NCBI GenBank assembly: GCA_044892505.1
Contig: CM097882.1
Span: forward strand, 520,056,001 to 520,120,000
Source of the DNA: Schmidtea nova
Taxonomy: Eukaryota
Direction of reading: 5' to 3'
DNA: 64,000 nucleotides
Every line of letters begins with the position of its first letter. Positions within the stretch are counted from its first letter, which is position 1. A program made the translations under genes and the position numbers. Shown piece by piece: positions 1 through 50,827 of the stretch. Under the pieces are notes generated by a model. The model had not been told where the DNA came from. It saw only the letters and a program-made list of their open reading frames with translations, and did no database searches.

Positions 1-1
1 A

Positions 2-202
2 CTTACACCAACTAAAAATAAGAACGATGAACCAATTATCGTGCATGGTAATATATGTAAATCTGCAGATGATGAATTACCATTAATAAAACCTCTCAGA
101 TACAATTTAAGATCACAACCACAAAATAAATTAATGATGTCAATAGTTATCCTTACTATATTCAATATAGCGAATGCAAATACAGTAAATAATAAAGATT
201 AA
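2..202 (+). pseudogene. Gypsy integrase C-terminus running in frame into a signal-peptide-like segment (element A)
   Basis: Frame 2 reads KNKNDEPIIVHGNICK...RYNLRSQPQNKLMMSIVILTIFNIANANT, TAA at 200-202. EPIxVHxNxCK matches EPIMVHANRCK in the integrase tail at 10765-10983. Confidence 0.65.
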
Positions 203-492
203 ATAACAAAACAGAATATGATAGCATAATAATCATTAACTTAAATAAAGATTCTAAAATTCAATTATATCTAAAATTTAATAATGGTTTGTAGTGACAT
301 AATTAATATGTAAATAAATATTACATTTATAATATTCATAAGATTTATAATATTTATATTTATATTAAATATATATTTTATTATTAAAAAAGAAAAAAAA
401 CTTTTGTTTGTATTATGTAAATATTTGAAAAAATAAACGACATCTTGATTTAGTTAATTTAGTTAATTTGTTAATTTAGTTAATCATTCTTT

Positions 493-1218
493 ATGTTTTC
501 CCTAAATGATTATAAAGTATTTTGTGAAGATAACAACCTTGACAATAAAGTGGAAAATTGCAATGATAATCGTGAATTAAATCCCGACAATATTAATAGA
601 GACATAAAATACGGCATTTTGCCAAGTCTTCTTCTAAATTTCGAATGTCATACTGAAATGCTAGTTAAAGTTGCGAGCTTTGATAAATTCGAACCAATAA
701 CTGAAGATAGCCTTCCAAGGGAAACTTGCTCAAAAATTATTGATTTGGAATTCATTTGCAAATATTTCTTATTTGAAGCAATAATTCATGCAATTGTTAC
801 AATAGCTGAAATGGATCTAATAAATGATGAACAGACTGATATGTTGAGCAGCCATGCTGAGTTTATCACCAATTATAACGAGAGGTGCGATAATTATAAC
901 AACAGCAGTAGTTCATGCTTAAGCACATATACCTTACTCAATGAGATCACACAAAGGGTACCTCCTTTGATATCCATTTGCAGTGATATTAAATATCAAA
1001 TCGGAAAACATCCAAAGATAATTTCCCAGCCTGCTGACCGCTATCAAACACGACGATTTAGAAAAACTCAATGTCCATCTGTTGGGCGAATAATATACTC
1101 CCTAACGATACACGGTCGGACTAACGAGGGAAGAATCGAGGCAAACAATATAATGATGGTAAAAGCCAATACCACATGGTTTATACACACAATTTATAGA
1201 AAAGGCAAGAAACATTAA
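493..1218 (+). CDS. Open 241-aa Cys-containing ORF of unknown function in the element A accessory region; possibly env-like ectodomain
   Basis: Intact ORF with several Cys and NxS/T sites, between the signal peptide (134-190) and TM fragment (1526-1579). No family recognised. Confidence 0.35.
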   Translation: MFSLNDYKVFCEDNNLDNKVENCNDNRELNPDNINRDIKYGILPSLLLNFECHTEMLVKVASFDKFEPITEDSLPRETCSKIIDLEFICKYFLFEAIIHAIVTIAEMDLINDEQTDMLSSHAEFITNYNERCDNYNNSSSSCLSTYTLLNEITQRVPPLISICSDIKYQIGKHPKIISQPADRYQTRRFRKTQCPSVGRIIYSLTIHGRTNEGRIEANNIMMVKANTTWFIHTIYRKGKKH

Positions 1219-1462
1219 AAATAATTATATAACTATATATATATATATAAATTTAAAACCACACACAGTCTTATTTATTTATCGAAACACCAATATCGGG
1301 ATTTAAGAAGACTCAATGTGAAATAGTAAAAGCAAAACCCATTAAACCTATAAATAAATTATTAACTCAAAATATACATAAAATAAAAAAACGAGGACCT
1401 TAAAAAAAGGCTCGAAAAATTAAATAGAATACCATTGAATAAACCCGCAATAACCATAAATT

Positions 1463-1681
1463 AACTGGGAAGAATTCCATAATCTTTATTATCCTCAACC
1501 AAAACCCTTTTATAAAAGATGGCCATTTTATACAATAATATTTAGCATAACACTACTAGTAATAACAATAACATGGATAAGCACTCAAACTTATAGAAAA
1601 TATAAATGGAAAAGACAGCGCTATCGGAGTCACCTTATCCAATATGTACCTGGAATATACACACTATCTACCCTTTGTTAA
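1463..1681 (+). pseudogene. C-terminus of a type I membrane (env-like) protein, element A
   Basis: NWEEFHNLYYPQPKPFYKRWP-FYTIIFSITLLVITITWI-STQTYRKYKWKRQRYR...LC*: hydrophobic helix plus basic tail; no ATG, so absent from the ORF track. Confidence 0.55.
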
Positions 1682-2234
1682 ATTAAACTGTCTAATCACA
1701 AAATGCACAAAATACTACCCAATCAAAAATCAAAAATCATGGGTTCCAATAAAATTTAATCAAAACTTAGTATTTATATGTCAGATAATTTATAAAATTC
1801 ACTCATATAGATATTATATCGCAAATAGGGGTAAGCCTTACATTTGCTTAATTTCTAATATCATATTTATTTATCATTTTAGATCAAGAATGAATTAACA
1901 ATCCAGAGCAATTATCCAACAATCCAATCCCATCACAAACAAACCAATACACACATATGACATACACATGCAGTACATACAAACATCCAGCAGCATTTTA
2001 CAAAGCATTAAAAAATAATATTCAAGCAGACTGAGAAGATATCACCATAAGAAAATACCCTAACCAAATATGCATCCCCAATGATTTCAAAGTAGACACA
2101 GAAGAAAGAGAAATTATTCTGGTTAAATTTAATGTAGTTAAAAGATTAAAATTAAGAGAAATTATTTGCTACCATGAATCAAGCCAGAATTTGGATAAAG
2201 ATACAAAAGAAGGTAAAAAATCCTACATAGAATA

Positions 2235-3083
2235 GTGATCCAGGCTCCGAGAACGAAGATTTCACTAAAATACGAAAACAAAACCTTAGTGACACTGAGC
2301 AAAAATACGGCAGCGTTTAAAACAATAAGAACAGACAGAAAAATGTTGAACAATTTCAATTATATAATGATCCAAATACACAATATACCTTGTGTAATTG
2401 CCATAGAAATATTATACATCCCAAAAATTAATAATCCCTTTCAAAAATCAGAAATAATCATTGCAGATATCAAGATGGACGAAAATTTCATAGAAAAGAA
2501 GACACCATTTAGAAAAAGATTCCTAACAACCAAGGAAAGAAGAGAAAAAATAGATTTAGTGTATGTTAAGACACTGAATGATTGTAATCGACAACCCAAA
2601 CCAATAGACATACACATCAGGCAACACAACGGTGATTGTGTATTTAAAACCAAAATTACTCCAAGAACCAAATTATAAATGGACAAAATAAACAAAGATA
2701 CGATTATAGGTAATATGGACGAATTCGAAGTTTTTTAAGAAATTAAAAAACACTTATACGGAAAAATAATTATCGGTTTCGACATTATGGAGAAACTAAG
2801 AAGTATCTTTATTAGTTTAGATGACGTATTAGGGGTAATAGAAATGGCAAATAACGAATATACAAAACCATTTGTGAAAAATGTCCCAGAAGATAAAATA
2901 AAATTATCAAATCTTGCCTTTCAAGTTATAAAACTCAGAAATGACTTAAAAATAAATAAGACATTAAATAATATTTTACTTCAAGCGGAACCATTCAATG
3001 TTCAAGACACATGCATGATAGTTAGAATCCTATATCTAATAACAGAGACAGATTGGGAAGATCACATTAACCAACAAATGTAA
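2235..3083 (+). pseudogene. Accessory ORF with REX4/ISG20-like exonuclease fold, element A
   Basis: ORFs 2235-2678 and 2787-3083 share a frame, split by two TAA. Motifs IHIRQHNGDCVFKTKITP, EIKKHLYGKIIIGFD and VQDTCMIVRILYLITETDWEDH. Confidence 0.6.
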
Positions 3084-3193
3084 AAGATACCAAATATCCT
3101 CATAGCCCCTATATAGAAACATATATCGAAATAAAAGAAGAGCTGGAAATCCAAAATAATGAAAATATAACAAGATGGGATTTTGACTTAGAT

Positions 3194-5813
<2,620 letters not shown>

Positions 5814-6049
5814 ACTTAGATAATGAGCAAATAAACGACATAGAACCGTATGAAAACAAATCAAGAGATAGAACAAAGAATAGTTGAACAAATTAATGAT
5901 GAAGAATTAGGACCCGAGCCCACTTTATCTCTAGAAAATACACAAGATGAAAATTACATAATTTTAACAATATGATGAAAACATTAAGAACACCACGATA
6001 ATTATGGATGAAGATGAATTAAACCTTTATTATGTAGAAAAAGGTTATA

Positions 6050-7942
6050 TTTGTGTATATACATTATATTTGTATATACATTATATTTGTGTATGGCTTC
6101 TTTATTAGTAAATACTCGGTTGTTAGTATTGTCTTGCCATCGTTCTCTGAGTTTGGTCTCTTTTTTAGTATTCCTTTTAATTTGTTTTCAATGTTCTCAC
6201 TGTTTTTAGTTGTTATTTGTTTGTTTATTTCTTCGTTGTTTTTTATGTTTGATTTCTCGTCGAAAGTTACTGGTGGGATAAGTTTGTCGGCTTTCTCTAG
6301 TAGTGTGTTTATTTCTGGGCCATGATTCAGAATTTGTTTTGATTTGTTGTTTGTTAGACCCATTTGGATAACACCAATGTCTATTTTTGAATTGGTTGTC
6401 GCCATGGTTTTGACGGTTTCTTTGTTTTTGCTTGTGTTTTCGGTTAGTGTTTTATTTCGGCAGTCTATTGTGAGGTTGTAGTGTGCCAGGAAGTCAGCTC
6501 CTATTATGGACTGTTGAACATCAGCGATTATGAATGTCCAGCTGTATTTCTTTAAATTAATTGTTAGAGTTAGGGTGTGTTCACCAAATGTTTTTATGCT
6601 TGTGCCCTTGGCTGCGGTTAAATGTTTTTTTGCGTTTTTTGATTGTTTTGTGCAGGTAATGGGGTAATAAAGAGATCACAGAACCTGTGTCAATTAGGAA
6701 TTCTGTGTTATTTGAGTGCACCATAAATGTATTGTTTTTGTCACCAAATGTGTGTGCGACTACTGGCAATGTTTCCAGTTTTTTTGTATTTGTTTCATCA
6801 AATGTAGGAGCAACTACTGGCAAACATTTCAATTTTTCTGTGTTCTTTTCGTTGTATATGCATGGTTTTGTGCAATTGAATGTTTTTTCTCCAAATTTGT
6901 TATGAAAGTAACAAAATTCTTGATTTGCTAGTCTGATTTCTGGTTTCCAGAATTTTTGTCTATATACCATTAATTTGTTTTTGTTGTTGTGAGTGTTTTG
7001 GTTTTGATTTCTTGTGTTTGGCTTTGGCCGGTTGAGCCTATACAATGTTTGATTTGGGTAGTAGTTTTGTTTTAAGTTTCTTTCTTTAATTTCCTTTAGT
7101 TCTGATTTGAACCTTTTATTTTCAGTTGCGATTTTGTCATGATGACTTATTAAATTATTAAGAATTTTATTTGTTTTGCTAAATTTAGTTCTTTCGTTTT
7201 CCTCCTCATCTTGTTCATGGTTGGGTATTCTATTTTTGATGTCCTGAGTACTCTTAATACTGGGGTAAGTTCCTGCATTTATTTTATGGGCCATGTCTGT
7301 CAGCATTTTGTTTTCAGTTTGATTACTTTTAGTAGTTGATGTTTGACATGATATTTGTTCGTTTGAGTCCAAGTTTGCTATTTTGGTTTGGACATACTCC
7401 AAATTTTGTTTTAGTGGTTTTGGGAAATTATTTTGGATATTATCCTTTTGTTTGCTATTTGTGAAAGATTCTTGTATATGCTTTTTATTTGTTTGATTTC
7501 TGTTTGCTAATAGGCTGCAGAGTTTTTCAAAAGGGTTGTTGTTTGTGAACATTTCGTCTATTTGATCGGAAATTTCGTTGCAGATATAACTTGGAATTCC
7601 TGTTAATATTTTCGAGCATATTAGCTTTGGTGAGGTTATATCGCTCAAAGTTAATGTCAATTTGGCTATTTTTAACCATGCGTGGATAGAGCCATTTTCA
7701 TTGGTAAAAAATTGGGATGGGGTTATTCATTATCTTTGTTTTTTATGCTCTTCAAATTCTTGTTTTCTTGTATATTTCTAGTTTTGTATTTTGTGAAAAA
7801 ATGAGCTTTTTTAAGGATATGGCTTACTGTGTTCAGCCAACAGAGACGCTATTATTTATACCTCTATACTAGGTATACTAAAAGAAATAGCGCTTGAAAA
7901 AAACGTAGCGTGTTCTGTTTAATGTTTTTTCTTCTGACACAA
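6050..7942 (-). mobile_element. Ty3/Gypsy 5' part: PBS, gag, aspartic protease; RT absent
   Basis: Gag with FCYFHNKFGEKTFNCTKPC, protease FLIDTGSVISLLP, frameshifted continuation SIIGADFLAHYNL; PBS-like TTGTGTCAGAAG on minus strand at 7931-7942. Confidence 0.85.
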
Positions 7943-8666
7943 ATTATCATGTTGGGATATAATGTTTTTATTAGTATTTATGTTAAGAATGCTGCCTTTT
8001 AGAAAACTGTAGAGCCCAGCAGAGTCTCCTATAAAAATAACTGTCTTGGGACAGCTGGGATAAATGTTGTGTATTTTGTGTGTGTGTGTTTGTGTATGTT
8101 TATTACGACAAATCAATAAAAGATTATAATAAAACAAAACAATATTTATAACCACAACTTGTATTTACTAAACAAATAAAGAATAACCGGTACTCACAGT
8201 GGATAATTAGTTATGGACTGGAAAAGTCATAAATCATAAATAGTCAATAAATCTTCTTTGGATAACTTCTTAGTTTCTTTTAATTTGATTCCTTTTCGGG
8301 TTTATCTTTTTTCCCTGGTTAAATTCTTATAATTTTTTAGTCCATTCCATTTTTCTCAATTTATTTAGATCAATTAACTATTTATATAGTTAATTGATTT
8401 TTTGTTTAATTAAAATTATTTTTGTTTTTAACTTTTTCTTGTAATTTTGATAATTAGTCATGCACCACGAACAGGGGGAGTTCTCCTGTGTCCGCAAGGA
8501 CGCCCTTATTAATAACCGCTACAACACGGATCACAATAATAATAATAATGACAATAACAATTAAAAATATACAACATTAACAAGGACATAACCTTAAAGC
8601 CCCAGGGAGTTATATTGGAAGATGGAAGGGTCGTAAGTGTAATAAAATTAAAATATCATACAATAG

Positions 8667-8807
8667 NNNNNNNNNNNNNNNNNNNNNNNNNNNNNNNNNN
8701 NNNNNNNNNNNNNNNNNNNNNNNNNNNNNNNNNNNNNNNNNNNNNNNNNNNNNNNNNNNNNNNNNNNNNNNNNNNNNNNNNNNNNNNNNNNNNNNNNNNN
8801 NNNNNNN
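8667..8807. other. Assembly gap
   Basis: N run. Confidence 1.
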
Positions 8808-9461
8808 CAAGCCAACAATGAAGGAACAATAATTGAAAAAACTTGATAATTTAATTTTATTTTTGAAGTGAATTAACTATGATTTTTATTTGATTTATTG
8901 ATTTTTATTTTGTTATATTTGGATGTATTTTTTATGGTCAACAGATATATTTTATTTTGGTGAGGAATATGAATAAACATTTAAAGTTATTATATCATCT
9001 AAAATAGCTGGGCATAATTGTTACTGTTTTGAATATATGTATATATATGTGTGTCTGTGGGTATATATATAAATAAATCGATGAATATTTCAAATTACCA
9101 TCAAAATTTTATTTAGTAAAAAACATTATTATTATCGTTATTATTATTGTTATTATAAAAATTACTATTGTTATTATTACCATTTTTTATGTTGTTGTTA
9201 TTTTAATATTATGATTTTATTGTCATTATTATTATTTAAAAAAAGAAAATTTCTTTAAAAGCACTTAGTGCTCGAATATTTACTTGCCAAATTTAGTGCC
9301 TTCGCCATATATATATATATATATATTTACATTTTAAATTTTTGTTATATATATACATTATTAAATTAAATATAGTTTATTTACAAATTGATTAATCGGT
9401 GTTATAATTTTGACAAAAAATGGCAAGCAAACAAATTCAAATGCAAAAAATGACAGTTTTA

Positions 9462-9653
9462 TTAAATAAAAAGCAGCAAGCAAACTCGAATGCAAAGACG
9501 ACAGTTTCATTAAATAAAAAGCAGCAAGCAAACTCGAATGCAAAGACGACAGTTTTATTAAATAAAAAGCAGCAAGCAAACTCAAATGCGAAGATCACAG
9601 ATTTATTAAATAAAAAGCATCAAGCAAACTCAAATTCTAAGATGACAGTTTAT
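9462..9653 (+). repeat. 48-bp tandem repeat, 4 units plus flanking partial units, probably in an LTR U3
   Basis: TTAAATAAAAAGCAGCAAGCAAACTCGAATGCAAAGACGACAGTTTCA at 9462, 9510, 9558, 9606; followed by TATATAAA, AATAAA, CTACA and a PBS. Confidence 0.9.
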
Positions 9654-9754
9654 ATAAATATGAAGAAGGAAGCAATTCAAAACTCAACGCGCCGATATTT
9701 TTATTATAATAAAAGTTCATTATTGATAGTAATTCATTTTAGAGTTACTACAAT

Positions 9755-9766
9755 TGGTGTCAGAAG
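9755..9766 (+). promoter_or_regulatory. LTR primer-binding site, tRNA-Leu type
   Basis: TGGTGTCAGAAG two nt after LTR-like end CTACA (9752). Confidence 0.75.
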
Positions 9767-10479
9767 AAGTGACAACTGTCAATATCACAAATCATCAACA
9801 ATTGCACAATTCACAGCTTCGTTGCCTCTCGGATCCGTTCCATATCCTCTTTTCCAGCAACAGTTATTAGCACAAACTAGCCTAGCGAATGTTCAGTACA
9901 TTCACTATCCTATTCTCAGTCCAATAGCTCACGGACATAATATGCTATCAGCCTCCACGTCAACTGCCGAAGTTATACACTTTTTCGAACAAGCTTCAGC
10001 GAAGCATGCTATACTAGAACGAATTTTTTATTATATTATCTTATATAAAATCTTATCTGTAATTATCATAAAATTTATTAATTTAATAATTTTATTTTAT
10101 TACAAATTTATCTATAAAAATTTTATATACACTCCATCTACCTCACTCTTATTCCCCATTTTAACTGCAACCATATTAAAAACATGAGCCAACCCACAAC
10201 AATTATTCTTTCCCCGCAGCTGCCTCCGTTACACCAACCTATATACTTATACGCTTCAACAAAATAATAAGCCAAATCGCTATTACCACTGACCTTTACA
10301 CCGACATTGCCACCTCTCTCCACATCGATAAAACTTCTTTTTACATGCTGTGTAACTGTTTCCAGCTTTCTTCAATCACCGAGGTACTACCGAATTCAAT
10401 CATAGACATCCATTGACGCATCCTAGGAGGTAAAGGTTCTGCAGAAGAACCATCTTCCTCATCCGGATTAGTGTTTATT

Positions 10480-10983
10480 TTGTATTTTATCTTTTATCCG
10501 TTTAAGACGAATACAGAACGGGGTACAGAAAACCAAAACCCCACAGTAATATGCTGTTCATGAGTGTACGAGACAAACGCCGTTTTATCTCATGTATTTA
10601 AGACACATTAAAATGGCTATCGACTTGTTGTTTTTCCCAAAAGCAACGCAGTATTTAGACCAAGAAGATTATCTCATGGAAATGATAGAGAGAATGCAAG
10701 AGGCATGGACTAAAGCAGGAAAGAGTCGAAAGATTATCATGATAAGAAAGCCAAAGAACATGGCATGTTAGTTGAAGACAAGGTGATGCTGGAAAGCCAT
10801 TATAATAAAAAGGGCTTATCACCAAAATTAATGAGAAACTTCAAAGGACTGTATGAGGTTTTGAGAACCACGGACACGAATTTGGTCTTGCAAATAGTAG
10901 CAAATAGAAAAGCTGAACCAATAATGGTACATGCTAACAGATGCAAGAAAGTTGCGATCACTGAGAAAGATCAGGTCAAATAA
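10480..10983 (+). pseudogene. Gypsy integrase C-terminal half, element B
   Basis: AVHECTRQTPFYLMY, EMIERMQEAW, GLSPKLMRNFKGLYEV (GPY/F-like), EPIMVHANRCKK; frameshifted. Confidence 0.85.
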
Positions 10984-11039
10984 AAGAAGGATAAAGGGTC
11001 AGAACTAGTCTCAAACCGATATCCGTTACGACAAGAGGC

Positions 11040-12116
11040 GTGCCAAAATCAGTTACATTTTTGGTAATAATAAGTTGTCTCATATCATCAGCAAAAACAT
11101 TTGTCCCAACAGCGGTGCAAATCCAAGATCTCGCATTCAGAAGATCTTTCCAGGAATTTCGGATAATATCATTAGCTGAAAATGATACCAAATTCAAGTT
11201 CTCGTTTTGCGAACGACGTTGTTTCCATTTTCCATTGGATTCAAACACAAGAGTGAAAGTCATAAAGAACTTATGAGCAGAAAAGGAATATCTATTAGAT
11301 ATACTTGTACAACATTTCATGTTTGGAAGATGGTCAGATTTTTCAAAATCCCAATGGAAGCTAAAAACAGCAGAATTCAAAAGGAAAGTTAGGATAAATA
11401 TCCAACCAGGTATGATTTCCTTCAGACAACCAAAACAGGGAGTGGATAGAGTAAAGATAGCAATTCATTCCGACAAAGAAATAGTACGAGAATTGTGGTT
11501 AAATGAAGACATTGAGAAGCAGAACCTCAAATGGAACAGTTCAGTAGAATGGAAAGCCCATATCACTTATATGATAATAAACAAAAAACCAGGAGTCGAT
11601 GAATGGAATGAAGTATTTTACGAAGTAATTCCTTTGAAATTACCCCTATTATCGACAACAACAAAATCGGTTACATCATTGATACGAAAAGAAAGTTACA
11701 TAATTCATCCTGCAATATGGCAGAGACTGAAAGGGTTGAAAATGGTAAAACCAGCAGTATCAACAGAAAGTTATATTAAGAGTTGTCAGTGTACAATTAA
11801 TAAAGTAAACCCCATTACTCACTTGGCAAAATTACCCGTTGGGGTATGGATTATTACATCAGCAGTATTGGCTATGATTACAACATTGATAGCAATGGGG
11901 ATTTGGATGAAATTATTCTTCAGCCAGGCTATCGAGTCGGTTGATGGTATTATGATGACAAGATTTATGACAATTACAGATAAATCACATATTTGTATTT
12001 ATATATATTTTAAAATATATAATATTGTTGAGCTCCGAGTAGCATTAACCTATAGCATAAGTAGATCTCGTAAACCGAGATTTGTGCATTTCTTTTTAGC
12101 CAATATTGGCATATAA
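11040..12116 (+). pseudogene. env-like type I membrane protein, element B, one internal TGA at 11274-11276
   Basis: ORFs 11040-11276 and 11319-12116 share a frame; signal peptide VTFLVIISCLISSA, sequons NDT and NSS, TM VGVWIITSAVLAMITTLIAMGIW; directly after integrase. Confidence 0.7.
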
Positions 12117-12155
12117 GTATATCTGATAATAACGTTAATTATTTTTCTTTTAGAT

Positions 12156-13532
12156 ATGAAGCATCAGGTATCACAGTACAAGCAGCGTTACAGCACTATC
12201 AACGTGCAGACAATACAAAAAGAAAAGCTTATTTATCAAAACACCGAGAAAGCTATAACCGCAGAATCACGGAAAGGTCTAGGTTATTGGTATTACGGGC
12301 ACTGCACCGGCATCCCTAAAATTTCAAGTTTCTTGGATCCCCCAAGAGACAAATGTGTTTTGTTACCAGCCTTGAGAATATCCGGTTGACAAAACACATG
12401 GCAGAATTAAATCGATCAACCTTTACCCATCATCTTTTGATCCACGCGATCAACAAACCATTTACAATCTTCATGGCAGGAGCCACAGGACCTATCCTAC
12501 TCCAACCAGAATCTACTTTAGAAATCGGAAACGGAGAGGGCAGAGAAAAGAACATATCTATCCAATGCGACGGCTACAACACCAGTGTAGTGCTGGAGAT
12601 TTTGGAACCCACCAAGGCAGTGCAATCATTGTGGAAAAATGAACCTGCCTGGGCCTATAATGTTAATGAGAACGATCTAAAATCGTTTAAATCCTTTGTA
12701 CGCATGAATTTGCATCCCAATCAAAAGGATAGATTATCCATATTTGTAGCGGTTCATTATGCTACCCTGCGAGACTATTTAAAGCCAGCCTTAGTGGCTG
12801 TTTCTATTACTAACTACGGGGGTGATTTAATATTAAACACTGTGGTTACCCCCAGGAATCAGTCAAACATTACCAATCGCACGCGCATGGTATGACAGAA
12901 AAATAAATCATTGGACAGTTTGACGGGTAGGATTGCGCTGACTGCATTAGGAAATTATGTGATGGGAAAATTCTAATCGGTCTCCAAGTCAACGAATTCT
13001 TGGAAGCAGACCAGTTACCCCCTCAGCGAGTTTTAGGCATTCGAGAGCTAGGAGCAGCAAAATGTCTGGAAGCGAGAGAACTGAAGAAATGCAACGGACA
13101 TTATCGACTCGCCTATCCGACTTGAAAACGACATGTACTATTTACCTCAAACTGAGAGAAGTTTGGATAGACGACATTACCCCAGGTAATCGTAGTGGGA
13201 CGATTACATCGGAAGTTAAGTTGGCTCGTGTGGTACAGAACCCCGAAGCAGGCAAAAGAAAAGCTATTGATAGCTTACCACAGGAACAGTCAACTTCAAC
13301 TAACCTACAAAAGATAGTTGAGGAAGAATTGCTATCCCCTCCAGCTATATCTTTAGCTGATGAAGATGATTACGCCACATGCGAGAGCAATGACGAGGAT
13401 CAGACCGACCTAAAATTAACTCTACACGGAGATAGGCGTACAATCACGAAGCTTACGCCAGAAAGCTCTTTAAAGAAGGAGAACAAGCTCGTAGAACTAG
13501 TAACCAAAACATTCCAAAAATTTACTTCATAG
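12156..13532 (+). pseudogene. Accessory ORF with REX4/ISG20-like exonuclease fold (about 12730-13170) and acidic tail, element B
   Basis: Across frameshifts: LVAVSITNYGGDLILNTVVTP, HGMTEK.IIGQFD, IRKLCDGKILIGLQV, LSDLKTTCTIYLKLREVW. Confidence 0.65.
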
Positions 13533-13663
13533 GAAAAATCATCCCCAAAGAAAAGTCAAGAACCTGTTGTAAGGTTACAAGACTTGATGATTAAAAAGAA
13601 AGTCCAGAGACTATCTCACCAGAAGATGGAGATTTAATAGAAATAGCATTCGTACCACCCGAT

Positions 13664-14041
13664 TTGGAACAGATCCATCAGATTAAAGACGAACGGAAGG
13701 TGATTTCGTTGGAACAGGGAATTCGGCAAAGATACCCCAGGATCTGGATAATGAGGATCCTAGTTTTTTGGCAACGACCAGGGAGAAATTGGGCACCTCG
13801 TATAAAGGAATACGATGGAAAACCTGTACACCAATCATCAATCTCGAACTTTCCGTATTATGGAGTTTTAGAAGCGAATGGAAAATCATACGTGATTTCT
13901 TCAATAGTATATAAGGAAGTAGAAACGCGCGAAACACTGGTGGTCAGTTATAGACCAGACATAGTGGAGGACCGCATCAAGAACGAACAAGCGAATATTC
14001 GCGAACGGGCAGCTCATAATATATTCGCGAAGGATAACTAG
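13664..14041 (+). CDS. Unknown terminal accessory ORF fragment, element B
   Basis: 125-aa open frame with the same composition as the upstream ORFs, before the PPT. Confidence 0.35.
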   Translation: MEQIHQIKDERKVISLEQGIRQRYPRIWIMRILVFWQRPGRNWAPRIKEYDGKPVHQSSISNFPYYGVLEANGKSYVISSIVYKEVETRETLVVSYRPDIVEDRIKNEQANIRERAAHNIFAKDN

Positions 14042-14345
14042 CATTTCTGCTACGTTCAATTCAATGTCTAGCAATAAGCTATGACGAATCTTCATCAAAC
14101 AATTAACATTTCGGCTAATTATGCAAATTTCTCAAGTTTACAGACAGTTACCATTTGATATTTATTGTGATCAACATTATATTATGACTTATGTGTTTTG
14201 TGACTTATTTTATTTTATTTTTATGATAATTGACCAGGTGCATTCAATGTATATATGCATTATTGTTATTTTATTTTATTGCTGCTAATCTTTCTTGTCT
14301 TTTCCGCTTTAATTTTAGGGACGAAAATCTTGTTAGGGGAAGACA

Positions 14346-15221
14346 TGTTAGGGTTCGAGATCATAGGATTTCGTTTATTATAGATAATTAATAAGTATAG
14401 TAATAAATAATTACCATAAATAAATATAGATTAAATATAGTAATAATTAAATAGTATAAATAAATATAGTAATTAACAATTACTATAAATAGATAGAGAA
14501 TTACAATAATAATAAATAAATAGGTAAAAAGTAATAATAGTAATAAATAATATATAAATAATAAATATAGTTTAAAAATAGTAATAGTAAATTACTATTA
14601 TTTATAATTTTAAAGGTCAAAATAGACCAATGCATAAATAATCGTGTCTGGTCGTCTAGACCTACACGTAGATAAATATCATATATAAACTGATTGCAAA
14701 ATCAGTTAGAGTAGTTGTTTTACTGGACAGAAGTTATTTAGATTTAAATTTTTGAGTAGCAAATTTTGTGAAACGGAATTAGTAATTTTGAGAAAATATT
14801 AGTGACAGGTCGTTAGAGTTATTTAAGAAATACAGCTACTTGGTAAATTTTAATTTTATTATATTTTTTGCGATCACGGAACAATAGTATTATTTACTAT
14901 TTTGTTCCTTCAGAAAAATCGAATAAACTAATAAAATATCAGAAGGGAAATTCATTAGGAAAAATTATTAACCAATTCTGGGTTATTACTATCGCGCAAA
15001 CTACCGGGAATCCTTCATCTTCTTGTCCAATATCTTAGTCGGAGCTGTGAGCCATTTAGGTCCAGCTTTCGTTTCTTTGAATCTGAGGACGGTTTGAACA
15101 ACCGATTATCTAGCTTTAGACATAGCAGCTATTGCACTATTATCAAAACACCTTTTTGTACATTGTATTGTATTAATAAAACTTATTTCACAAAACCTTG
15201 TTTTCTTATTTACACGCAACA
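14346..15221 (+). mobile_element. Probable 3' LTR of element B
   Basis: Preceded by GGGACGAAAATCTTGTTAGGGGAAGACA (PPT-like); starts TGTT; contains TATATAAA and AATAAA; plausible end GCAACA (uncertain). Confidence 0.6.
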
Positions 15222-15979
15222 AAACACACATATTTTATTTATATTTAAATAAGAGGATTATCGTTTGGAGTACGATAATCAATTAAAGTTATTAATTATC
15301 GAATTAGTTTATCTGTGTTCTTCGTAGCCACTGATACGAACCGAACAATAGCATAAATGGTAAAAATGTAAAATTAAATTAGTTAAAACTTTAAAGGGAC
15401 GCCATTATTCAGTGCATACAAGGTGTGCTAGTTTGATGCTTTGGTCATCCTAATTATTTTTATTCGGCAACAGCCCATGTCCGGGTTGTTATTTGTTTAA
15501 TGGTAAATAAAAAAATCTAGAATAAAAAAAGAAAAAACCTGTAGTGATCACAGATCCACAAAATCAGTAAAAATTAATATTCATGAAAAAATTTAATTAA
15601 ATTAAAAAATAACTATGCACATATAACAATGAAATAAACAACTTTGTTTAAATATTAGAATTAGTTATGGGTTAAAAAAATAAAAATTGTTCAACATGTG
15701 CGTGTTAATTTTGCTTTATTGTTATTTTATCAGTGTGGTGGATATTGAATGATTTGTCAGAATTCAATATCTCAATATGAGTGTTAATATTTTCAATAAT
15801 GCCGTCACCAATCATCAATACCTGCGAGTTTCAGATAGCAAGGACGCGGATATTTTGATCTTTTCAATGGTCAAGTTGGAAGTTGAAGCCTTCATGGAAC
15901 TTTTCATGGCGTTTTCAAAGAAAGACTGCACTAAGAATTTGTGATAGTTATCGAGGGGATAACAGTATCTGATTCTTAC

Positions 15980-34924: not shown

Positions 34925-35358
34925 AATAATTCTCATAATGATGATTATAGATCATAAAAATATTTTTATAAACAATAACACAATATTTCGGCACAGCCTT
35001 TATCACTTGATAATGGAATATAATAATGATCTATAGTCATCATTATGAGACTTATTGATAATAATAATAAAAAAAGATCAAAGGTGAAAAAAGATAATTA
35101 TGATAATAACAATAATAAACATAATAATAATAATAATAATAATATCATAATTATCTTTTTTTTCACCTTTGATCTTTTTTTATTATTATTATCAATAATT
35201 CTCATAATGACTATAGATCAAAATTTTTATTATAAACAATAACACAATATTTCGGCACAGCCTTTATCATAAAGGCTTTATGATAAAGGCTGTGCCGAAA
35301 TATTGTGTTATTGTTTATAAAAAAAAATTTTGATCTATTGTCATTATGAGAATTATTG

Positions 35359-35420
<62 letters not shown>

Positions 35421-35432
35421 TATTATTATTAT
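34925..35432. repeat. Array of alternately inverted PLE pLTR-derived units with truncated hammerhead cores, ending in (AAT)n(TTA)n
   Basis: Unit TCTCATAATGACTATAGATC...ACACAATATTTCGGCACAGCCTTTATCA in both orientations; palindrome centres near 35125 and 35275. Confidence 0.85.
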
Positions 35433-38400
35433 TAGCAGCAACGATATCAAAATCATTTTCGGTATCCATTAAATAAATAAAATCAACTACAAAATTTATT
35501 AAATTTGAAAACTACGCTCTTTTCTCCTAATATATAAACAAAAACTTGAAGGCTATTCTTCTTTAATTCTGATGTTGATTTAAATGCTGGCTAATTTTTA
35601 AATAAGAAATAACATATATTTTAAGGTTAATTTAATTAATTAATTTAAGATGTTTAAATAAAAATTTATGAAATCTGACAAATACAATTTAAATGTTTAT
35701 TAGCAATTTTAATTTAAACGTGAATTCTACCCTTTCATCCCCCTTCTTTAAATTCTTTAATTTTTTCAATATTCCTGATTAAAGACTTTCCACATTTATC
35801 TCTCAGCATATAACTACGATCGTGTATTCGTCTTGTTACCGTGTATGGTCCTTCATACCTATCTTGATCCTTGTTTCGAATTTTTCGTTTGATTAACACT
35901 TTGTCTCCAACTTCAAACTTCCTTGTAGTTGTTGTTTCGTCATTTAGTCTTTTACTTTCAATTTTCAATGCTATTTCTTTTCTGTTGATTTTACTATCAC
36001 TATACCATTTCGATCTATCAATTCTCCTACCAAAAACAATTTCAGCTGGACTTACTCCCGTTGTTTTTTGGATTGTCGCGTTGAGTGTATATTCTGTATC
36101 TGGAATAAGAACTGCCCAGTCTTTTGCATTTCCGTCTTTCAGCGATGCATTAATAAAATCTCTTATTGTCCGGAATTGTCTTTCGATTATACCATTCGTA
36201 TTATGATGATATGGACTCGAATACACTATTTCGATCCCTGCTTTCTTGCTTATATTCTTTATGCTATTCGCTTCGAATGTTTTCCCGCAATCTACATGTA
36301 GTTCCTTGGGTGCCCTAAATTTTAGAATACAATTGTTTAACAATATCTTCCCAATTGTCTCTTCATCCTGTTTATTTATTGCTGTTAGCGAAATGTATTT
36401 ACTGTAATGGTCGATTATTGCGCAAATGTATCTTTTCCTGTTAAATGTTTCTTTCATTGGGCCACAGATGTCCATATATATTTTCTCGAAAGATTCTGAT
36501 GCTTCAAGTACTTTTGATTTCTCTTTCATCTTTGTAGTTACAACTTTAACTTTTTGGCACGATTCGCAGTTTGATATTGCTGTTTTTACCTCATTTATTA
36601 AATCTCTCATATCAAAATTGTTTTGTATGTATTTGATAACTTTATCAACTCCGGCATGACATAATAATAAATGTGTTTTCTTAATCATTTCTCTTCTTTT
36701 ACTTTCTGGTATCCATATTCTTTTTTCTTTGTTGTATATAATGTTATCTTCTATTATAAACCTTTTACTTGGTTGAGTTCTTATTTTATTTTTAATGTCC
36801 TCTATTTCTTCACTATTTCTTTGCCATTCTTCTCCTTTCCCTTCAGTCATTATACTTAACAATCTGGTTTTCATTCTTCCCATTTTAGGATTATCGTGAT
36901 CCATAAGGCATTGCACACATGGGCCACACGTTTTCCTCGATAACATGTCTGAGTTAGCATGTAATGTACCTTTTCTAAATTCCATTTTTATATCAAGGCT
37001 GCTTAAATAGTTTATCCACGTCTGGAATTGAGCTGTAATTTGCTTCTTTGTTGTTAGCATAAACGTTATCGCCTTATGATCTGTACGTAGTGTGAATCTT
37101 TTTCCATATAAATAGTGGTTGAAATGTCGACAAAAATAGTATATAGCCAAAAGTTCTTTTCTTGTAATACAATAACCCCTTTCATGGTCATTCATCGCAT
37201 ATGATCCATATGCGATAACTTGCTCATATCCCATGTCATCCTTATGTGATAAGACTGCGCCAATCGTATCAAAACTTGCGTCCGTATCCAATATGATTTC
37301 TTTCTTAAAATCCGGAAATACCAAGATCGGTGCGGTTATCAATGCCAACTTCATATTCTCAAAAGCCTGCTCACAATTTTCATTCCATATTATTTTGTCG
37401 CTATTTTTACCACATATACTCTCTAAAGCTCTTGACTTCTTTGCGTAGTCTTTAATAAACCTTCGATAATAGTTGCAGATGCCCAAGAAACTTCTTAAAT
37501 TTTTCACACATTTTGGCCTTTGGAATGATTGAATAGCTTCAATTTTGATTTGATCAGTTTGAATGCCGCCTTTATTTATAATATGGCCTAAGAATTTCAC
37601 TTCACTTTTCAGTATTTGACATTTTTCTGGGTTAATTCTTAGTTTAGCATCCGCAATTTTCTGCAATACTCTTTCCAGCAGTTTATAGTGTTCTTCCATT
37701 GTATTCGTAAAAATTAATATATCGACCAAATAAACCATTACTCCATCTTTCCATAAATCCTTTAATATCTTCGTCATGAGCTCTTGAAAAGTGCCTGGTG
37801 CTGCTGCGATGCCAAATGGCATTCGATTAAAACAGAATTGTCCCTCTTTCGTTGAAAAAGCTGTTTTCTCCTGTGATTCTCTATCCAATTTTACATGATA
37901 GTATGCGTTTCCAAGGTCAATGGAACTAAAATATCTAGTTCCATGCAAAGCATCTAAGATCTCGTCGACATTTGGCATCGGGAACCCTTGCCTTTCAGTA
38001 ATTTTGTTAAGTTGTCTAAAATCCAAACAAAGTCTGATATCCTTCTTTTCTTTTTTCCAAACGCACACTAACGGGGTGTTCTAAGGTGAATTACACTTCC
38101 TTATAATATTATTATCCTCCAGATTTTTAATGGCCATGTTTATTTTCTCTTCCAAGTTTATAGGCTGCCTTCTTGGCATTATCATTATTGGTCCACCAGT
38201 TGTTTCAATTTTATGCTCAAATAAATCAGTGCATCCAATATCCCACTTGTCAGCCATGAAAACATTTATTTCTCTTGATAATTTCTAAAAGAAATTTATC
38301 TTCTTTTACTTTCAACTTCTCTATTGTATATTGGAATCTTTCTTCATTTGTAATATTCCTCCCAAATTTAGCATCAATTTCACATATACGTTCGTTAAAT

Positions 38401-46454: not shown

Positions 46455-46860
46455 GCTTTTTATTTTTATCAATAATTCTCATAATGATGACTATAGATCA
46501 AAATTTTTTTATAAACAATAACACAATATTTCGGCACAGCCTTTATCAAGTGTGTATTTCAATCGTTATATTAACTTAATCCTAAATAGTAGCCTTAATT
46601 ATTTTTTTAATATTTTATAATGATTTTATTGGATGAAAAAGATTTATTTTAATTGGATGAAAAAAAATTTATTTTAATTTTTTTGTGCGAATTGAATGTT
46701 GATGGACGGTTTGTATTTTTTTATGTAAAAAGTCTCGGAAGCTAATCTTTGTAATGAATTTCTGAATCCCTCTTGTAGAATCTGGCATTTTGTTTCTTCT
46801 ATAGATGGAGTTGTTTTATGTACTTGGTAAATAAATTTGGTAAATAAATACTTATAAACC
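46455..46860 (-). mobile_element. PLE 3' end: GIY-YIG C-terminus plus pLTR-like tail
   Basis: QILQEGFRNSLQRLASETFYIKKYKPSINIQ; homologous to 49480-50020 and, inverted, 50230-50530. Confidence 0.8.
46521..46553 (-). ncRNA. Minimal type I hammerhead ribozyme, U3-A8 variant
   Basis: ACAC-UUGAUAA-A-GGC-UGU-GCC-GAAA-UAUU-GUGU: stem I 4 bp, stem II 3 bp, palindromic stem III, AUU site. Confidence 0.75.
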
Positions 46861-47032
46861 ATATTAAGTATTTATTTTGTTAACCAGTATTTATTAAAGG
46901 CAGCACAAATCAAATTTTACTAATATTAGGTGGTACCCAAAATTAAATTCTGTGTTATATCGTAAACCAACTATACTTAAAGTGGGTTTACGAACCAACA
47001 CAAAATTTAATTTTGGGCACCAAACAATATTA

Positions 47033-48307
47033 TTAGGTTGTCCGGAATGAAATGTCCGAATAATATATAATAATTGCAAATCATCATAACTTTTTTATAA
47101 AAATCGTATTTCTTTATTTTAAAGTTTATTAGAAAGCGCTTATTTCAAATTCAAATATTAAATAAGATTTATAATAACTTAATTGCCATAAATTCCAAAA
47201 GAAATGTACAAGTTAGAAAATCATGATTTGAGACTTCTTCATTTATATGAGCGGAAATTGAAGAACAATTCATTTGAGGCGGAGAGAAATATTAATAATG
47301 CTTTTGGGAGCGATACAGTTAATGAACGAACTATTAGGTGTTGGTTTAAAAAATTTGATGACGGAGAACTTGATCTAGAAAATATGCCTCACGGTAGACA
47401 CAATAACAAGCTATCGGAGGAAGATTTACGAGAAGCTGTTGCTCAAAATTCAACAAGATCTGGAGAACTTGCTATAAATCTGTCTGTCTAAAAATCAACC
47501 GTTCATGACAATTTAAAGACAATTGGTATGGTCAAAAAGCTTCAAAAATGGGTCCCACATGAATTGACTGAATTGCAGAAATTTAACAGATTGCAAACTT
47601 GTCTATCTTTTCAAGTACGACATCGAAAGTCATCTTTTCTTAATACTAGAATTACCTGCGACGGTAAATGTATTCAATACGATAATTGTAAATGATCAGG
47701 AGAATAGTTGGATAAACATCAATGTCCAACACAGTTTCCAAAACCGGAACCTCACCAAAAGAAGCCATGCTTCCAGTCTGGTGGTCGAAGTCTGATGTAA
47801 TACATTATTGTTTTCTGAAAATGACTACAACAATTAATTCTGAACGATACTGTGTAGAACTAGAAAAAATGCATGAAAAACTCATCATTAGTCACCCTGC
47901 TATTGTTAATAGAGAAAGGTCCATTTATTCTGCATGATAACGCCAGGCCTCACGTATCGACAGTCACTGTAAAAACATTACACGACTTAGAATTTTAAGT
48001 TTTACCGCATTCACCTTACTCACCCGATCTATCACCAATTGATTTCCACTTATTTAGACATTTAAGTCTTTATATCAAGGGCAGAAAGTTTAAAGATCTG
48101 GAGGAGATAAAATCGACAATTATCATTTTCTTGGACTTCAGACATGAGACGTTTTTTAAAGAAGGTATAGAAAAGCTCCAACAACGATGGCAAGAGTGTG
48201 TTAATGTTGATGGATTATATTTTGATTAAATAATAAATGTTTAAATATGTTTGTACGTCTTTAGAATTATAATTCATTTAGCGGAAATTTCATTCCGGAC
48301 AACCTAA
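47033..48307 (+). mobile_element. mariner (D,D34D), full length, inactivated
   Basis: TIR TTAGGTTGTCCGGAATGAAAT, TA TSD; WVPHEL, ITCDG, LHDNARPH, YSPDLSPIDF; stops and frameshifts. Confidence 0.96.
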
Positions 48308-49254
48308 TAATAAAATTTGATTTGTGCTGTCTTAAATAAAAACGGGTTTAAAAAATAAATACTTAGTATTGTTTATTAGTATTTAAAAAATATATGCTGA
48401 GCAAACTTTCATGCATTCCTTGACCACACATAATGAATTTTTATTTTTATTTTTTTACTTTTATTTATAAGCTAATTTAAATTATCAAAAAATTTAAAGA
48501 TAAATTTACCATAAAATCAATAAATATTTTTCCGTTTGTATTTTTGATGATTTTACTTTATCTTCATTCACGCAAAAATATTTAAACAAATTTTTAATTT
48601 TTAAAAATAATTATTTTTAACACTTTTTTTCCTGATTTTACTCATTTGATTTTACAAGAAATTTTAAACATTCTAATTTTTTTCATCTGATTTTTTTAAA
48701 TGAACTCCAAAAGCTTTCTAATATCAAAAAGCAAATTTAAACACAAAATTATTCATATGTAAAAGTTAAACAAATATTATTTTTCATCTACTAATTAAAA
48801 CAAAAAAAAATATTAAAAGTATACACAATAAAACTGAAATTCAACTATATCAATACCGGATCAATTTCATGTGCTTCGTGGTTTGAAAATATTTGTTTTT
48901 CTCACAGTTTTGATTAATTAACAAACGTGAAAATCTGATAAATCTTTATTATAATTAATGTAATAAAACAAGAAAAAATATTTTCCATGACATTCTTTGA
49001 ATACTCTCTAATTGAAATATTTCCGGTGGAATCAATTATTAATTAAAACAACGTTCAATACAGAAACCGTCCAATGATAAAAGAAACTGAATAGGTCTTT
49101 GAAGTTTTAGGCTTTTCCAAATATAAAAATGACATTTTTACGATATTGATAAAATTATCTTTTGGTTTCACCTTTGATATCTTTTTATTTAAATCAATAA
49201 TTTTCATATTAATAATTGGATGACTAAAGATCAAAAAATCCTTTTAGTTGTTAA

Positions 49255-49463
49255 CCCCTTCGCTGCGACCATATAGAAATGCTGTGTGCGACAGGATAAT
49301 TTGGTAATGCAATTTTGTTAAAACAAAGCATTTTATATAATAAAACTTACAGGGTTCCAAAGACTGTACAAATAAATACACAACATGACGAGACATACTC
49401 GTCAGTCTGACATGGGAATACTTTTTCATGACGAAACCATACTCGTCCTCCGCAGTGAAGGGA
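49255..49463. mobile_element. piggyBac-type MITE
   Basis: TTAA TSD; ends CCCCTTCGCTGCG / CGCAGTGAAGGGA; two CATGACGA..TACTCGTC subterminal palindromes; inserted in a pLTR unit. Confidence 0.88.
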
Positions 49464-49469
49464 TTAAAT

Positions 49470-49502
49470 ACACGATATTTCAGCACAGCCTTTATCAAGT
49501 TT
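49470..49502 (-). ncRNA. Minimal type I hammerhead ribozyme, second copy
   Basis: AAAC-UUGAUAA-A-GGC-UGU-GCU-GAAA-UAUC-GUGU; AUC site; one stem I mismatch. Confidence 0.65.
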
Positions 49503-49869
49503 GTATTTCGATTGCTATATCAACTTAATCCTAAATAGTAAATATAATTATTTTTTACTCTCTCTATATTAACTTCGTTGATGTTTGTAGGTTTGTATGT
49601 GCCACGCAAATTTTGTGAGGTCAAATTAACCTACTTTCCGTGATCGGATTGAGCTAAAATTTGGCAAGTAGATTTGTTGTCAAGAATACGTCATACTATC
49701 AAAGTGGCTCACACAAAAAAAGTGATTTTACGTAATAATAAATATCCAATTCTCAGATTCGAGTGAAATAATGAGAGAACTTCAAAAAACCATGTTTTTT
49801 ATGGTTGATTATTTAATATTTTAAATTGATTTTATTGGATAAATATTAATCTAATATAATTTAAAACTT

Positions 49870-50150
49870 TTTCATTTTTTGTGAGAATTGAATGTTGATA
49901 GACGATTTGTATTTTTTGATATAAGAAATTTCGGAAGGTAATTTTTGTTATGAATTTTTGAATCCGTCTTGTAAAATTTGGGCTTTTATTTTGTCTATAG
50001 ATTGGGCAATTTTATGTGCTTTCTCTCAGTGTTCGTAATAATTGCTAGTTTTATTTTTAGTGTGTTCATAAATTGATTGTGAAACGTTTTATGTGCTTCT
50101 CTTAAATAAGTAAGGTCACATTTTAGATAGGTAGGTTTATATACTATATT
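49870..50150 (-). pseudogene. PLE GIY-YIG endonuclease remnant
   Basis: NIVYKPTYLKCDLTYL..., QILQDGFKNS..SEISYIKKYKSSINIQ. Confidence 0.75.
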
Positions 50151-50689
50151 TTCGGAAAAACAAAAGCATCTGGTTATAGAACCGCAAAGACATTTATGTT
50201 TAAAGATGTTTGATATTGGTGGCTTTCAAAGTTGTGATTTTAACATTGCAGAATAAAAACCCAAATTTAACAAAACGGATTCAAAAGCTCAATACAAAGA
50301 TTAGCTTTCAAAACGTCTTTAATCATAGAAACAATTTGTCCACCAACATTCAAATCGCACAAAAATATTATTTTAAAAAATTTTAATTTAATAAAATAAA
50401 ATTAATATTCCTACAATAAAATCATTTTAAAATATAAATAAAATAATTGAATTTAATATTTAGAATTAAGTTAATATAAAAAATGAAATACATCTTTGAT
50501 AAAAGCTGAGAAAAAATATCGTGTACCTAACAAACAAAAACAATTTGATCTATAGTCATACAATTATTAATATGAGAATTATTGATTTAAATTAATAAAA
50601 TCTTCTATTTTCTTCACAATTGATTGACTATTTATAAACAAAGCAAACTTGCTTAAACAGCATTTATATTAATAATTTCCATAATGGCA

Positions 50690-50827
50690 AGACTATAGAT
50701 CAAAAATATTTTTTTAAACAAGCACACAATATTTTAGCACAGCTTTTATCAAGTGTGCATTTAACACTTGGTAAAGGCTGTGCCAAAATATTGTGTACTT
50801 GTTTAAAAAGTATTTTGATCTATAGTC
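50690..50827. repeat. Palindrome of two back-to-back mutated hammerhead units
   Basis: About 65-bp arms around GCATTTA; both copies have GAAA changed to AAAA. Confidence 0.85.

Follow-up and report, generated by a model that had tools for sequence, protein, structure and literature searches.

The window analysed here is a stretch of 64,000 nucleotides from contig CM097882.1 of Schmidtea nova. It holds two decayed copies, A and B, of LTR-bounded, high-copy Ty3/gypsy families. Their features, including later insertions, are listed below by position and strand.

Element A
14..199, + strand: C-terminal tail of integrase, YxLR and hydrophobic internal signal, broken copy (tblastn with a natural A-family polyprotein as query, 63% identity)
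208..1678, + strand: membrane module after integrase, made up of an Fn3-like domain, a stalk, a TM helix and a tail, assigned by homology to natural copies, with hints of Fn3
~290-1170: inserted repeat splitting the membrane module, a separate high-copy repeat
1890..3185, + strand: ORF2 with predicted AlkB-fold domain and catalytically dead DEDDh domain, with stops and frameshifts (65-72% identity to natural A-family ORF2)
3192..5812, - strand: hAT DNA transposon within ORF2 (617-aa open frame, terminal inverted repeats)
5813..6048, + strand: acidic C-terminal part of ORF2 (tblastn to natural copies)
6049..8582, - strand: third insertion, an unrelated fragment with gag/protease-like frames (labelled by eye; no Pfam match)
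8583..8908, + strand: last part of ORF2, likely followed by the beginning of the 3′ LTR; some of this stretch is N-masked (blastn to the A-clade copies L041 and L012; tblastn to the ORF2 end)

Element B
10551..11012, + strand: C-terminal region of integrase in a 5′-truncated copy (from 10551 on, the DNA is 88.6% identical to that of a natural copy of the B family)
11013..11966, + strand: post-integrase membrane module with YxLR, signal, two Fn3-like repeats and TM helix (91% identity to a natural copy; hydropathy; alignments)
11968..11985, + strand: junction motif, which in unbroken copies of B and B4 reads TGA (the ORF1 stop) and then CAA TTA, ORF2 being in frame
12156..14041, + strand: ORF2 with predicted AlkB-fold domain, dead DEDDh domain, acidic tail and C-terminal extension, with stops and frameshifts (model pLDDT 94; fold matches)
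14330..15347, + strand: polypurine tract and 3′ LTR (TG...CA; LTR at 14346-15347), matching both LTRs of a natural copy

Element A begins upstream of the window, its pol lying in the adjoining locus L017, and continues downstream to about 8900, interrupted by the three insertions listed. Element B runs from ~10551 to the end of its 3′ LTR at 15347. The preliminary description of this DNA had set the elements at 1-6050 and 10480-14345, which proved incomplete. The hAT transposon is bounded by an 8-bp target duplication, ACTTAGAT, and its frame matches Dimer_Tnp_hAT (Pfam, E 7e-4) and DUF4371, both under the curated cut-off. As truncated copies, A and B in the window both miss the fusogen region described below.

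The motifs by which the two elements had first been paired are present in both and in the order given. As proteins, A and B are joined by tblastn across the domain originally called unknown and the exonuclease motifs (E 1.4e-5). At the DNA level there is no obvious identity, since blastn returned short matches only (longest 36 nt, best E 0.014). When five unjoined pieces of the A-B alignment were compared with 1000 shuffles each, the N-part and C-part of the exonuclease gene and the integrase tail scored above all shuffles, whereas 30 of 1000 reached the score of the acidic tail and 768 of 1000 that of the stalk/TM piece. From the window copies alone, the likeness of these last two pieces is thus not supported.

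Polyprotein, envelope and membrane module

Natural copies form units of ~13-15 kb with TG..CA LTR ends, a primer binding site starting with TGG and a polypurine tract. LTR pairs were 98.9-100% identical in 10 of the 12 loci examined, and 4-bp target duplications were seen in three of five elements whose ends were inspected. One frame of ~3000-3550 aa contains, in this order, gag, fusogen, PR, RT, RNase H, IN, YxLR, a hydrophobic stretch, an ectodomain, a TM segment and a tail, and a separate ORF2 lies downstream. Pfam confirmed the order PR-RT-RNase H-IN in natural copies of A, A2, B, B2 and C1. The proposal of a Ty3/gypsy clade that is retrovirus-like and conserves an accessory cassette at the 3′ end of LTR-bounded units was right. 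The cassette is not the operon that had been suggested; it consists of the end of one polyprotein plus one separate ORF. In an RT tree, the families studied here and four metagenome elements form one clade (100/100) against two unrelated gypsy outgroups, and a sister relation of A and B is neither shown nor rejected (p-AU 0.45).

A class III fusogen was found in frame between gag and protease in all four families scanned (PF24664, E 1e-80 to 1e-90), and PF24664 likewise lies upstream of PR in both C families. By these profile matches, the envelope of the A and B families is a Monjiviricetes-type class III fusogen. The piece after integrase had been described as env-like, and it does possess a signal, a TM segment and N-glycosylation sequons (hydropathy and sequence scan) at the position of an errantivirus env. 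Even so, there is very little chance that it is the envelope of the element, as a complete fusogen is already encoded upstream of PR, and the ectodomain is short, variable in repeat number and matched only by Fn3/Ig-like proteins. The module continues in frame from integrase with Fn3-like repeats (weak matches) and a TM helix, and its tail is PDZ-like in 10 of 12; in unbroken A-family copies the tail ends in the PDZ-like motif. Most of its PDB profile matches are Fn3 receptors, of which neogenin is the best, at a weak E of 5.6e-4, along with ROS/sevenless, DCC and contactin. An Atlas match to Fn3 (0.84) is taken as a lead only, and Pfam gave nothing above cut-off, Fn3 included. Pfam scans of natural copies matched the module to no fusogen family, a result that does not exclude one. 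Judged by these sequence features, the module is likely a type I membrane protein and as such a second surface protein.

The gag-env-pol backbone is already known. Chary and Hayashi described Smed_errantivirus_1-6 as GAG-ENV-POL Ty3/gypsy elements with an HSV/gB-type env (PMC13524379), which resemble the present families in the order of their genes, the type of env and their length (14.5-18 kb). Compared by eye, the env of family A resembles that of Smed_errantivirus row _3, B that of _4, and the sister C families those of _1/_2. The main text of that paper mentions exonuclease, DEDD and fibronectin zero times, and we did not find the membrane module or ORF2 described in it. The giant planarian Gypsy elements Burro/GYPSM1 (Arkhipova and Yushenova, PMC6431247) share a single huge ORF1, CCHC knuckles in gag and an env that lies in frame from gag to PR and is homologous to mononegavirus fusion proteins, according to section 7 of that account, which names neither an Fn3-TM module nor an exonuclease ORF. 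Families A and C also have a weak, Burro-like Bcl-2 match under the cut-off. Unlike Burro, for which the criterion is >30 kb, the units here are half the size, and Pfam scans of ORF1 in natural copies gave no MATH, BIR or ankyrin. A high-copy LTR element bearing BIR was considered as a candidate Burro and rejected, as two of two copies examined showed neither RT nor an ORF2 homolog. The suggestion that the elements may be undescribed therefore stands for the 3′ cassette of membrane module and ORF2, of which we found no published description, but not for the backbone. In the literature found, the 3′ third is left unannotated.

Fold, catalytic state and evolution of ORF2

An AlphaFold model of a B-family ORF2 reached pLDDT 94.4 and pTM 0.90; an earlier model from a 4-sequence alignment had a pLDDT of only 31.5. 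The fold of the element A ORF2 was taken from this B-family homolog. In the predicted model, residues 196-362 superimpose on ISG20 (Z 18.4, rmsd 2.9, 161 aligned) and residues 1-153, with a middling Z, on OsALKBH1 (Z 11.2, rmsd 3.3, 139 aligned); ALKBH3/5/6/7 and prolyl hydroxylases gave comparable matches. The exonuclease domain was further matched to ISG20L2 by profile (E 5e-14), by Foldseek (E 2e-9) and to RNase_T in the Atlas (0.95). ORF2 is thus a predicted fusion of an AlkB-fold domain with a DEDDh domain of the ISG20/REX4 type. The model and the profile matches bear out the REX4/ISG20-like fold assigned from the letters alone, and the domain then called shared and unknown is indeed shared but would be of AlkB/2OG-Fe(II) type. 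Pfam gave nothing above cut-off on the broken window pieces and no match for ORF2 of natural copies. Word-index protein searches returned no relatives in one case and two in another, and no longer fused form, which is weak evidence; no relatives were found in viral contigs. Among viral proteins, fold matches included those to poxvirus C4L/C10L-like proteins and to closterovirus and vitivirus replicases.

The N-terminal domain shares the predicted double-stranded beta-helix fold with AlkB dioxygenases and the AlkB domains of plant RNA viruses (Z 9.6-11.2). Unlike in these, neither the HxD...H iron triad nor the 2OG-binding Arg was recovered in the ORF2 alignment with AlkB strands mapped by eye: H99 is the sole conserved His, with no conserved HxD or second His. 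On this sequence basis, we do not expect the domain to be a demethylase.

The catalytic set D-x-E, D/E, H...D is intact in 31 and absent in 22 of 53 element-type ORF2 homologs, and partial in none. In the A and B clades no more than one of these four marks survives, in agreement with the earlier remark that the nuclease is catalytically altered, and the C clade keeps all. One metagenome element (L105/L106) carries dead and intact ORF2 paralogs in tandem. Intact forms are basal in the tree, and the element clade is separate from cellular REX4-like rows (100/100). Parsimony places the catalytic losses at two to three changes, and a single dead clade is not rejected (p-AU 0.43); a first tree, which grouped 21 of the 22 dead rows, had taken in catalytic columns and long branches. 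In the dead domain, pN/pS was 0.29, 0.20 and 0.35, with no upper 95% limit above 0.44; shifted frames gave 0.98-1.67. The dead DEDDh domain is under purifying selection.

Loss of the catalytic residues and an ORF2 identity of 20-25% between clades might suggest that dead ORF2 is a functionless relic carried by the element. We consider this most improbable, as it is contradicted by the pN/pS values, with shifted-frame controls near 1 or above, by the more than 40 copies, among the 150 listed for each of two families, in which the ORF2 frame is open throughout, and by the spread of the 22 dead homologs over many lineages. Dead ORF2 could instead serve as a protein-binding scaffold or ligand sensor through its AlkB-fold domain, jelly-roll-like and of the poxvirus C4/C10 type, without any role for RNA. 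Live and dead forms do have a set of conserved N-domain residues in common (P54 96%, N55 87%, H99 90%, E150 85%), evolution is faster in dead than in live domains (root-to-tip 2.26 vs 1.36), and the poxvirus fold matches point the same way. We nonetheless regard this reading as rather unlikely, because both closest folds are nucleic-acid-processing families and selection acts on the exonuclease-fold half itself.

The closest solved folds and sequences to the second domain are the DEDDh exoribonucleases ISG20, ISG20L2 and SDN1, from which the element ORF2 differs in forming its own clade, in its added N-terminal AlkB-fold domain and in the lack of the catalytic set in A and B. The bdelloid LTR elements Juno and Vesta (Rodriguez et al., PMC5408684) also have an extra 3′ ORF with a DnaQ-like exonuclease, with a DEED variant of the motif. 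Their ORF3 is an RNase D-like DEDDy enzyme with its residues intact, whereas the present ORF2 is ISG20/REX4-like DEDDh with an AlkB-fold domain, is dead in 22 of 53 homologs and adjoins a true env. A dead DEDD domain kept by selection recalls three proteins whose dead DEDD folds bind RNA, Exuperantia (fold match to 5l80, Z 10.5), EXD1 and Maelstrom, the latter two named as dead DEDD folds in the rotifer study (PMC5408684). As these are host proteins from other DEDD branches, the analogy is one of mechanism and not of membership.

Possible expression and role of ORF2

An acceptor-like site precedes 4-5 of 15 ORF2 starts, by criteria chosen after seeing the sequences. Four sequencing runs, consisting of contigs of unrecorded kind that look like DNA, contain no splice joint at ORF2, a result without bearing on expression. 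Three of 13 junction rows have an in-frame readthrough layout; general readthrough was rejected, as the other 10 are out of frame or contain stops. The env-like ORF of SIRE1, a copia-type plant element, is made by readthrough of a UAG stop. B and B4 likewise have a single stop, then CAR YUA, and an in-frame downstream ORF, but the stop is TGA and the downstream ORF a pseudo-nuclease. Their TGA CAA TTA junction is a possible, putative readthrough signal. We infer that ORF2 would be translated from a subgenomic RNA produced by splicing; in these two families of the B clade, readthrough of the stop may also contribute.

In the reading that we prefer, at a probability of roughly 0.45, the A and B families combine gag and pol, an intervening fusogen and a second surface protein with an ORF2 predicted to be a pseudo-enzyme of AlkB-fold and DEDDh domains, which would bind RNA and so shield element transcripts from small-RNA silencing by the host. 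Given the alternating signal and TM topology, the fusogen and the Fn3-like module are predicted to be routed through the ER, with gag and pol remaining cytosolic. Through its PDZ-like tail, the module may partner the fusogen in attachment or in anchoring at junctions. Ancestral ORF2 would have trimmed RNA 3′ ends, and the dead form may have retained its surface for binding, serving as a shield or decoy. RNA-binding dead DEDD folds are noted for the piRNA field in PMC5408684, and PIWI controls gypsy elements in planarians (PMC8532177). In this reading, ORF2 would be an RNA-binding helper against host silencing.

ORF2 could also be a Rev- or CERV-like factor for export, packaging or translation of the genomic RNA of the element, with no part in counter-silencing. 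CERV of Cer1 (PMC10309623) provides a precedent; ORF2 is a separate 3′ ORF with acceptor-like sites, and readthrough of the in-frame layout in the B and B4 families would link it to the tail of the membrane protein. Moreover, two independently derived pol-less families retain ORF2, one with 29 exact junction copies and the other represented by L099/L100, though this may simply reflect deletions that spare element ends. An export factor would have no need of the full nuclease site that half of the clade retains, and one element carries both live and dead forms, so that we hold an export role possible but clearly less probable than the shielding of transcripts. Somewhat more doubtful still is a two-gene toolkit, new for LTR elements and common to an entire clade of enveloped retroelements of flatworms, in which an Fn3-repeat protein with a PDZ-binding tail would aim the fusogen at cell junctions, and ORF2, as a live nuclease degrading small RNAs and as a dead decoy paralog, would suppress PIWI silencing in animals rich in stem cells.

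If the preferred reading is correct, these elements would be analogues of complex retroviruses, with a two-glycoprotein entry system and a dedicated accessory gene for RNA handling. What a transposon gains from a nuclease was left open for the rotifer elements (PMC5408684). The AlkB-fold/DEDDh fusion, with its clean split into live and dead forms and both in one element, offers a natural pair for asking this. Because planarians combine RNAi with a well-studied PIWI system, counter-silencing encoded by the element would be directly testable.

Gene order and LTR-bounded units

A preliminary description of the window proposed that two Ty3/gypsy copies, A and B, share a 3′ cassette of an env-like protein and an altered exonuclease. 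All motifs it quoted are present in the window in the order stated. The protein likeness between A and B held for three of five unjoined pieces, which scored above all 1000 shuffles, but failed for the acidic tail and the stalk/TM piece, whose scores were reached by 30/1000 and 768/1000 shuffles, respectively. Stops and frameshifts break both copies. Element B is 5′-truncated and ends with its 3′ LTR at 14346-15347, while the pol of A lies upstream of the window and A itself is interrupted by three inserts:

484-1218, plus strand: 244-aa open frame of a separate high-copy repeat that splits A
3192-5812, minus strand: nested hAT transposon (transposase frame open over 617 aa) bounded by terminal inverted repeats, with 8 bp of target sequence duplicated
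6049-8582, minus strand: fragment with gag/protease-like frames, assigned by eye

The 244-aa frame had no match in a Pfam search, and the repeat carrying it was matched by 150/150 scored candidates, mostly at 80-91%. No second copy of the 6049-8582 fragment was found elsewhere in the window.

The same genome was then searched with one piece of A and one of B, scoring 150 candidates each, of 1083 and 919. These searches resulted in at least 152 and at least 150 matches, and more than 40 listed copies per search share a long open frame of 716 or 636 aa; the corresponding frames of sister families measure 702 and 649 aa. In 10 of the 12 fetched loci, LTR pairs with 98.9-100% identity enclose a single frame of ~3000-3550 aa (ORF1) and a second ORF (ORF2), placing the cassette inside LTR-bounded units. 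The near-identity of the LTRs suggests recent insertion.

Pfam matches along ORF1 follow the order gag zinc knuckles, Monjiviricetes fusion glycoprotein (E 1e-80 to 1e-90), protease, RT, RNase H and integrase, with a weak Bcl-2 match in A and C. Since the fusion glycoprotein lies after gag and before protease, the true envelope sits between gag and pol, and the post-integrase stretch that had been read as env is unlikely to be one. The gag-env-pol order is already described in passages on Burro (PMC6431247) and on Platyhelminthes errantiviruses (PMC13524379). By eye, the env of family A resembles Smed_errantivirus_3 of the latter source, that of B Smed_errantivirus_4, and those of the sister C families Smed_errantivirus_1/_2. 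These resemblances make a planarian host likely. The backbone is known, as are rotifer DEDDy ORFs, a case that the relevant passage of PMC6338049 cites without adding to it. Our literature search found no description of the 3′ cassette, though Repbase, the Burro genome paper or preprint supplements may annotate ORF2.

The post-integrase membrane module

In all families the frame runs past integrase into a YxLR motif, a hydrophobic stretch (under threshold in two of eight printed rows), an ectodomain and a TM helix. Combined with the signal and TM flanking the fusogen, this arrangement suggests that the polyprotein alternates between membrane sides. The ectodomain comprises one or more ~90-aa repeats, whose weak profile matches are mostly to Fn3 receptors (best E 5.6e-4). 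The last residues of ORF1 read [ST]-x-hydrophobic in 10 of the 12 rows, which are related by descent, compared to 5.4% of 1947 background termini; such an end resembles a class I PDZ motif. Between A and A2, the module has a pN/pS of 0.39.

Fold, catalytic loss and possible role of ORF2

Searching 1.84 billion proteins with a profile built from eight natural ORF2s yielded 44 clusters (E up to 1e-30), and the ten clusters looked up were all without names. The B-family ORF2 core was predicted at pLDDT 94.4 from a 79-row alignment, and its residues 196-362 match ISG20 (Z 18.4), in agreement with the exonuclease fold proposed earlier. In the predicted model, the stretch from residue 1 to 153 aligns with dioxygenases of the AlkB family (Z 11.2). 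The HxD...H triad is absent from this N-domain in the alignment; P54, N55, H99 and E150 are conserved.

For the catalytic census, 166 sequences were submitted, 116 domain rows passed the coverage filter, and 53 were considered element-type, i.e. from the same genome or a metagenome locus, or with the N-domain present (three being near duplicates). D-x-E, D/E and H...D were complete in 31 of these and at most one catalytic mark was left in 22, with no intermediates. A and B carry dead forms, consistent with the suggested catalytic alteration, and the sister C families have the intact set. In a domain tree calculated without the catalytic columns and after omission of five rows, the element domains grouped as a single clade (100/100), in which the intact forms branch basally. 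The dead ORF2 could be regarded as a relic; the dead domains are, however, under purifying selection, with a pN/pS of 0.20-0.35, as against 0.20 for an intact pair and 0.98-1.67 for shifted frames.

Acceptor-like sites are present ahead of 4-5 ORF2 starts out of 15, compared to ~4% in the background, by criteria picked after inspection. In B and B4, whose ORF2s are ~40-45% identical, the ORF1 stop TGA is followed by CAA TTA, possibly a readthrough hexamer, and an in-frame linker without stops. This layout occurs in 3 of 13 rows and in 5 of 8 B4 copies.

Beyond the observed anatomy and selection and the predicted folds, the post-integrase module may encode a second surface protein, and the ORF2 pseudo-enzyme may bind RNA and shield element transcripts from small-RNA silencing, a combined function to which we assign slightly less than even odds (roughly 0.45). 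This proposal draws on the fold relatives, on dead DEDD proteins in piRNA biology (in a passage of PMC5408684) and on PIWI control of planarian gypsy elements (in a passage of PMC8532177). Alternatively, ORF2 might act as an export or packaging factor, or as a protein scaffold.

Metagenome elements, pol-less derivatives and other repeats

Four of nine metagenome loci are long enough for pol, and all four carry the membrane module and ORF2 downstream of it. At loci L105 and L106, dead and intact ORF2 stand side by side in tandem. One metagenome element has an additional 222-aa coiled-coil-like ORF between polyprotein and ORF2 (L104:8751-9416). Weak tblastn matches place a second aspartic-protease-like stretch in an unusual position, in the post-integrase region of locus L108 and near 2929-3225 of L103.

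Two pol-less derivative families retain gag and ORF2. In the first, the pre-env signal is fused in frame to the terminal TM (29 copies with the exact junction); the second was found in 2/2 loci. The 5.9-kb pol-less units at loci L055-L059 (G000 C1 550.16-550.18 Mb, 312.98-313.0 Mb) form tandem arrays with common LTRs. Their identity to family A is ~65% in gag but ~97% in ORF2, which suggests recombination between subfamilies.

A high-copy, ~22-kb repeat-bounded element without RT (L090-L092, L095-L097) may be a non-autonomous relative of Burro. It encodes a 399-aa BIR ORF, an ORF that looks TRAF-like by eye, a coiled-coil ORF with the C-terminus ETFV and a small membrane ORF. Near A/B-type elements, a block of ORFs of 200-425 aa that by eye look Polinton/Maverick-like often recurs (L017-L018, L031, L033, L063, L089, L098). 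An unrelated gypsy element in the window served as outgroup:

36935-38131, minus strand: RT-RNase H, 35% to family C

Window positions 9398-9685 hold five 48-nt tandem units within a 257-aa frame, and similar sequence flanks another gypsy-type element at locus L046. Long inverted repeats and near-perfect hairpins cluster at 34945-35441 and 46457-50904; these are likely MITE or foldback elements.
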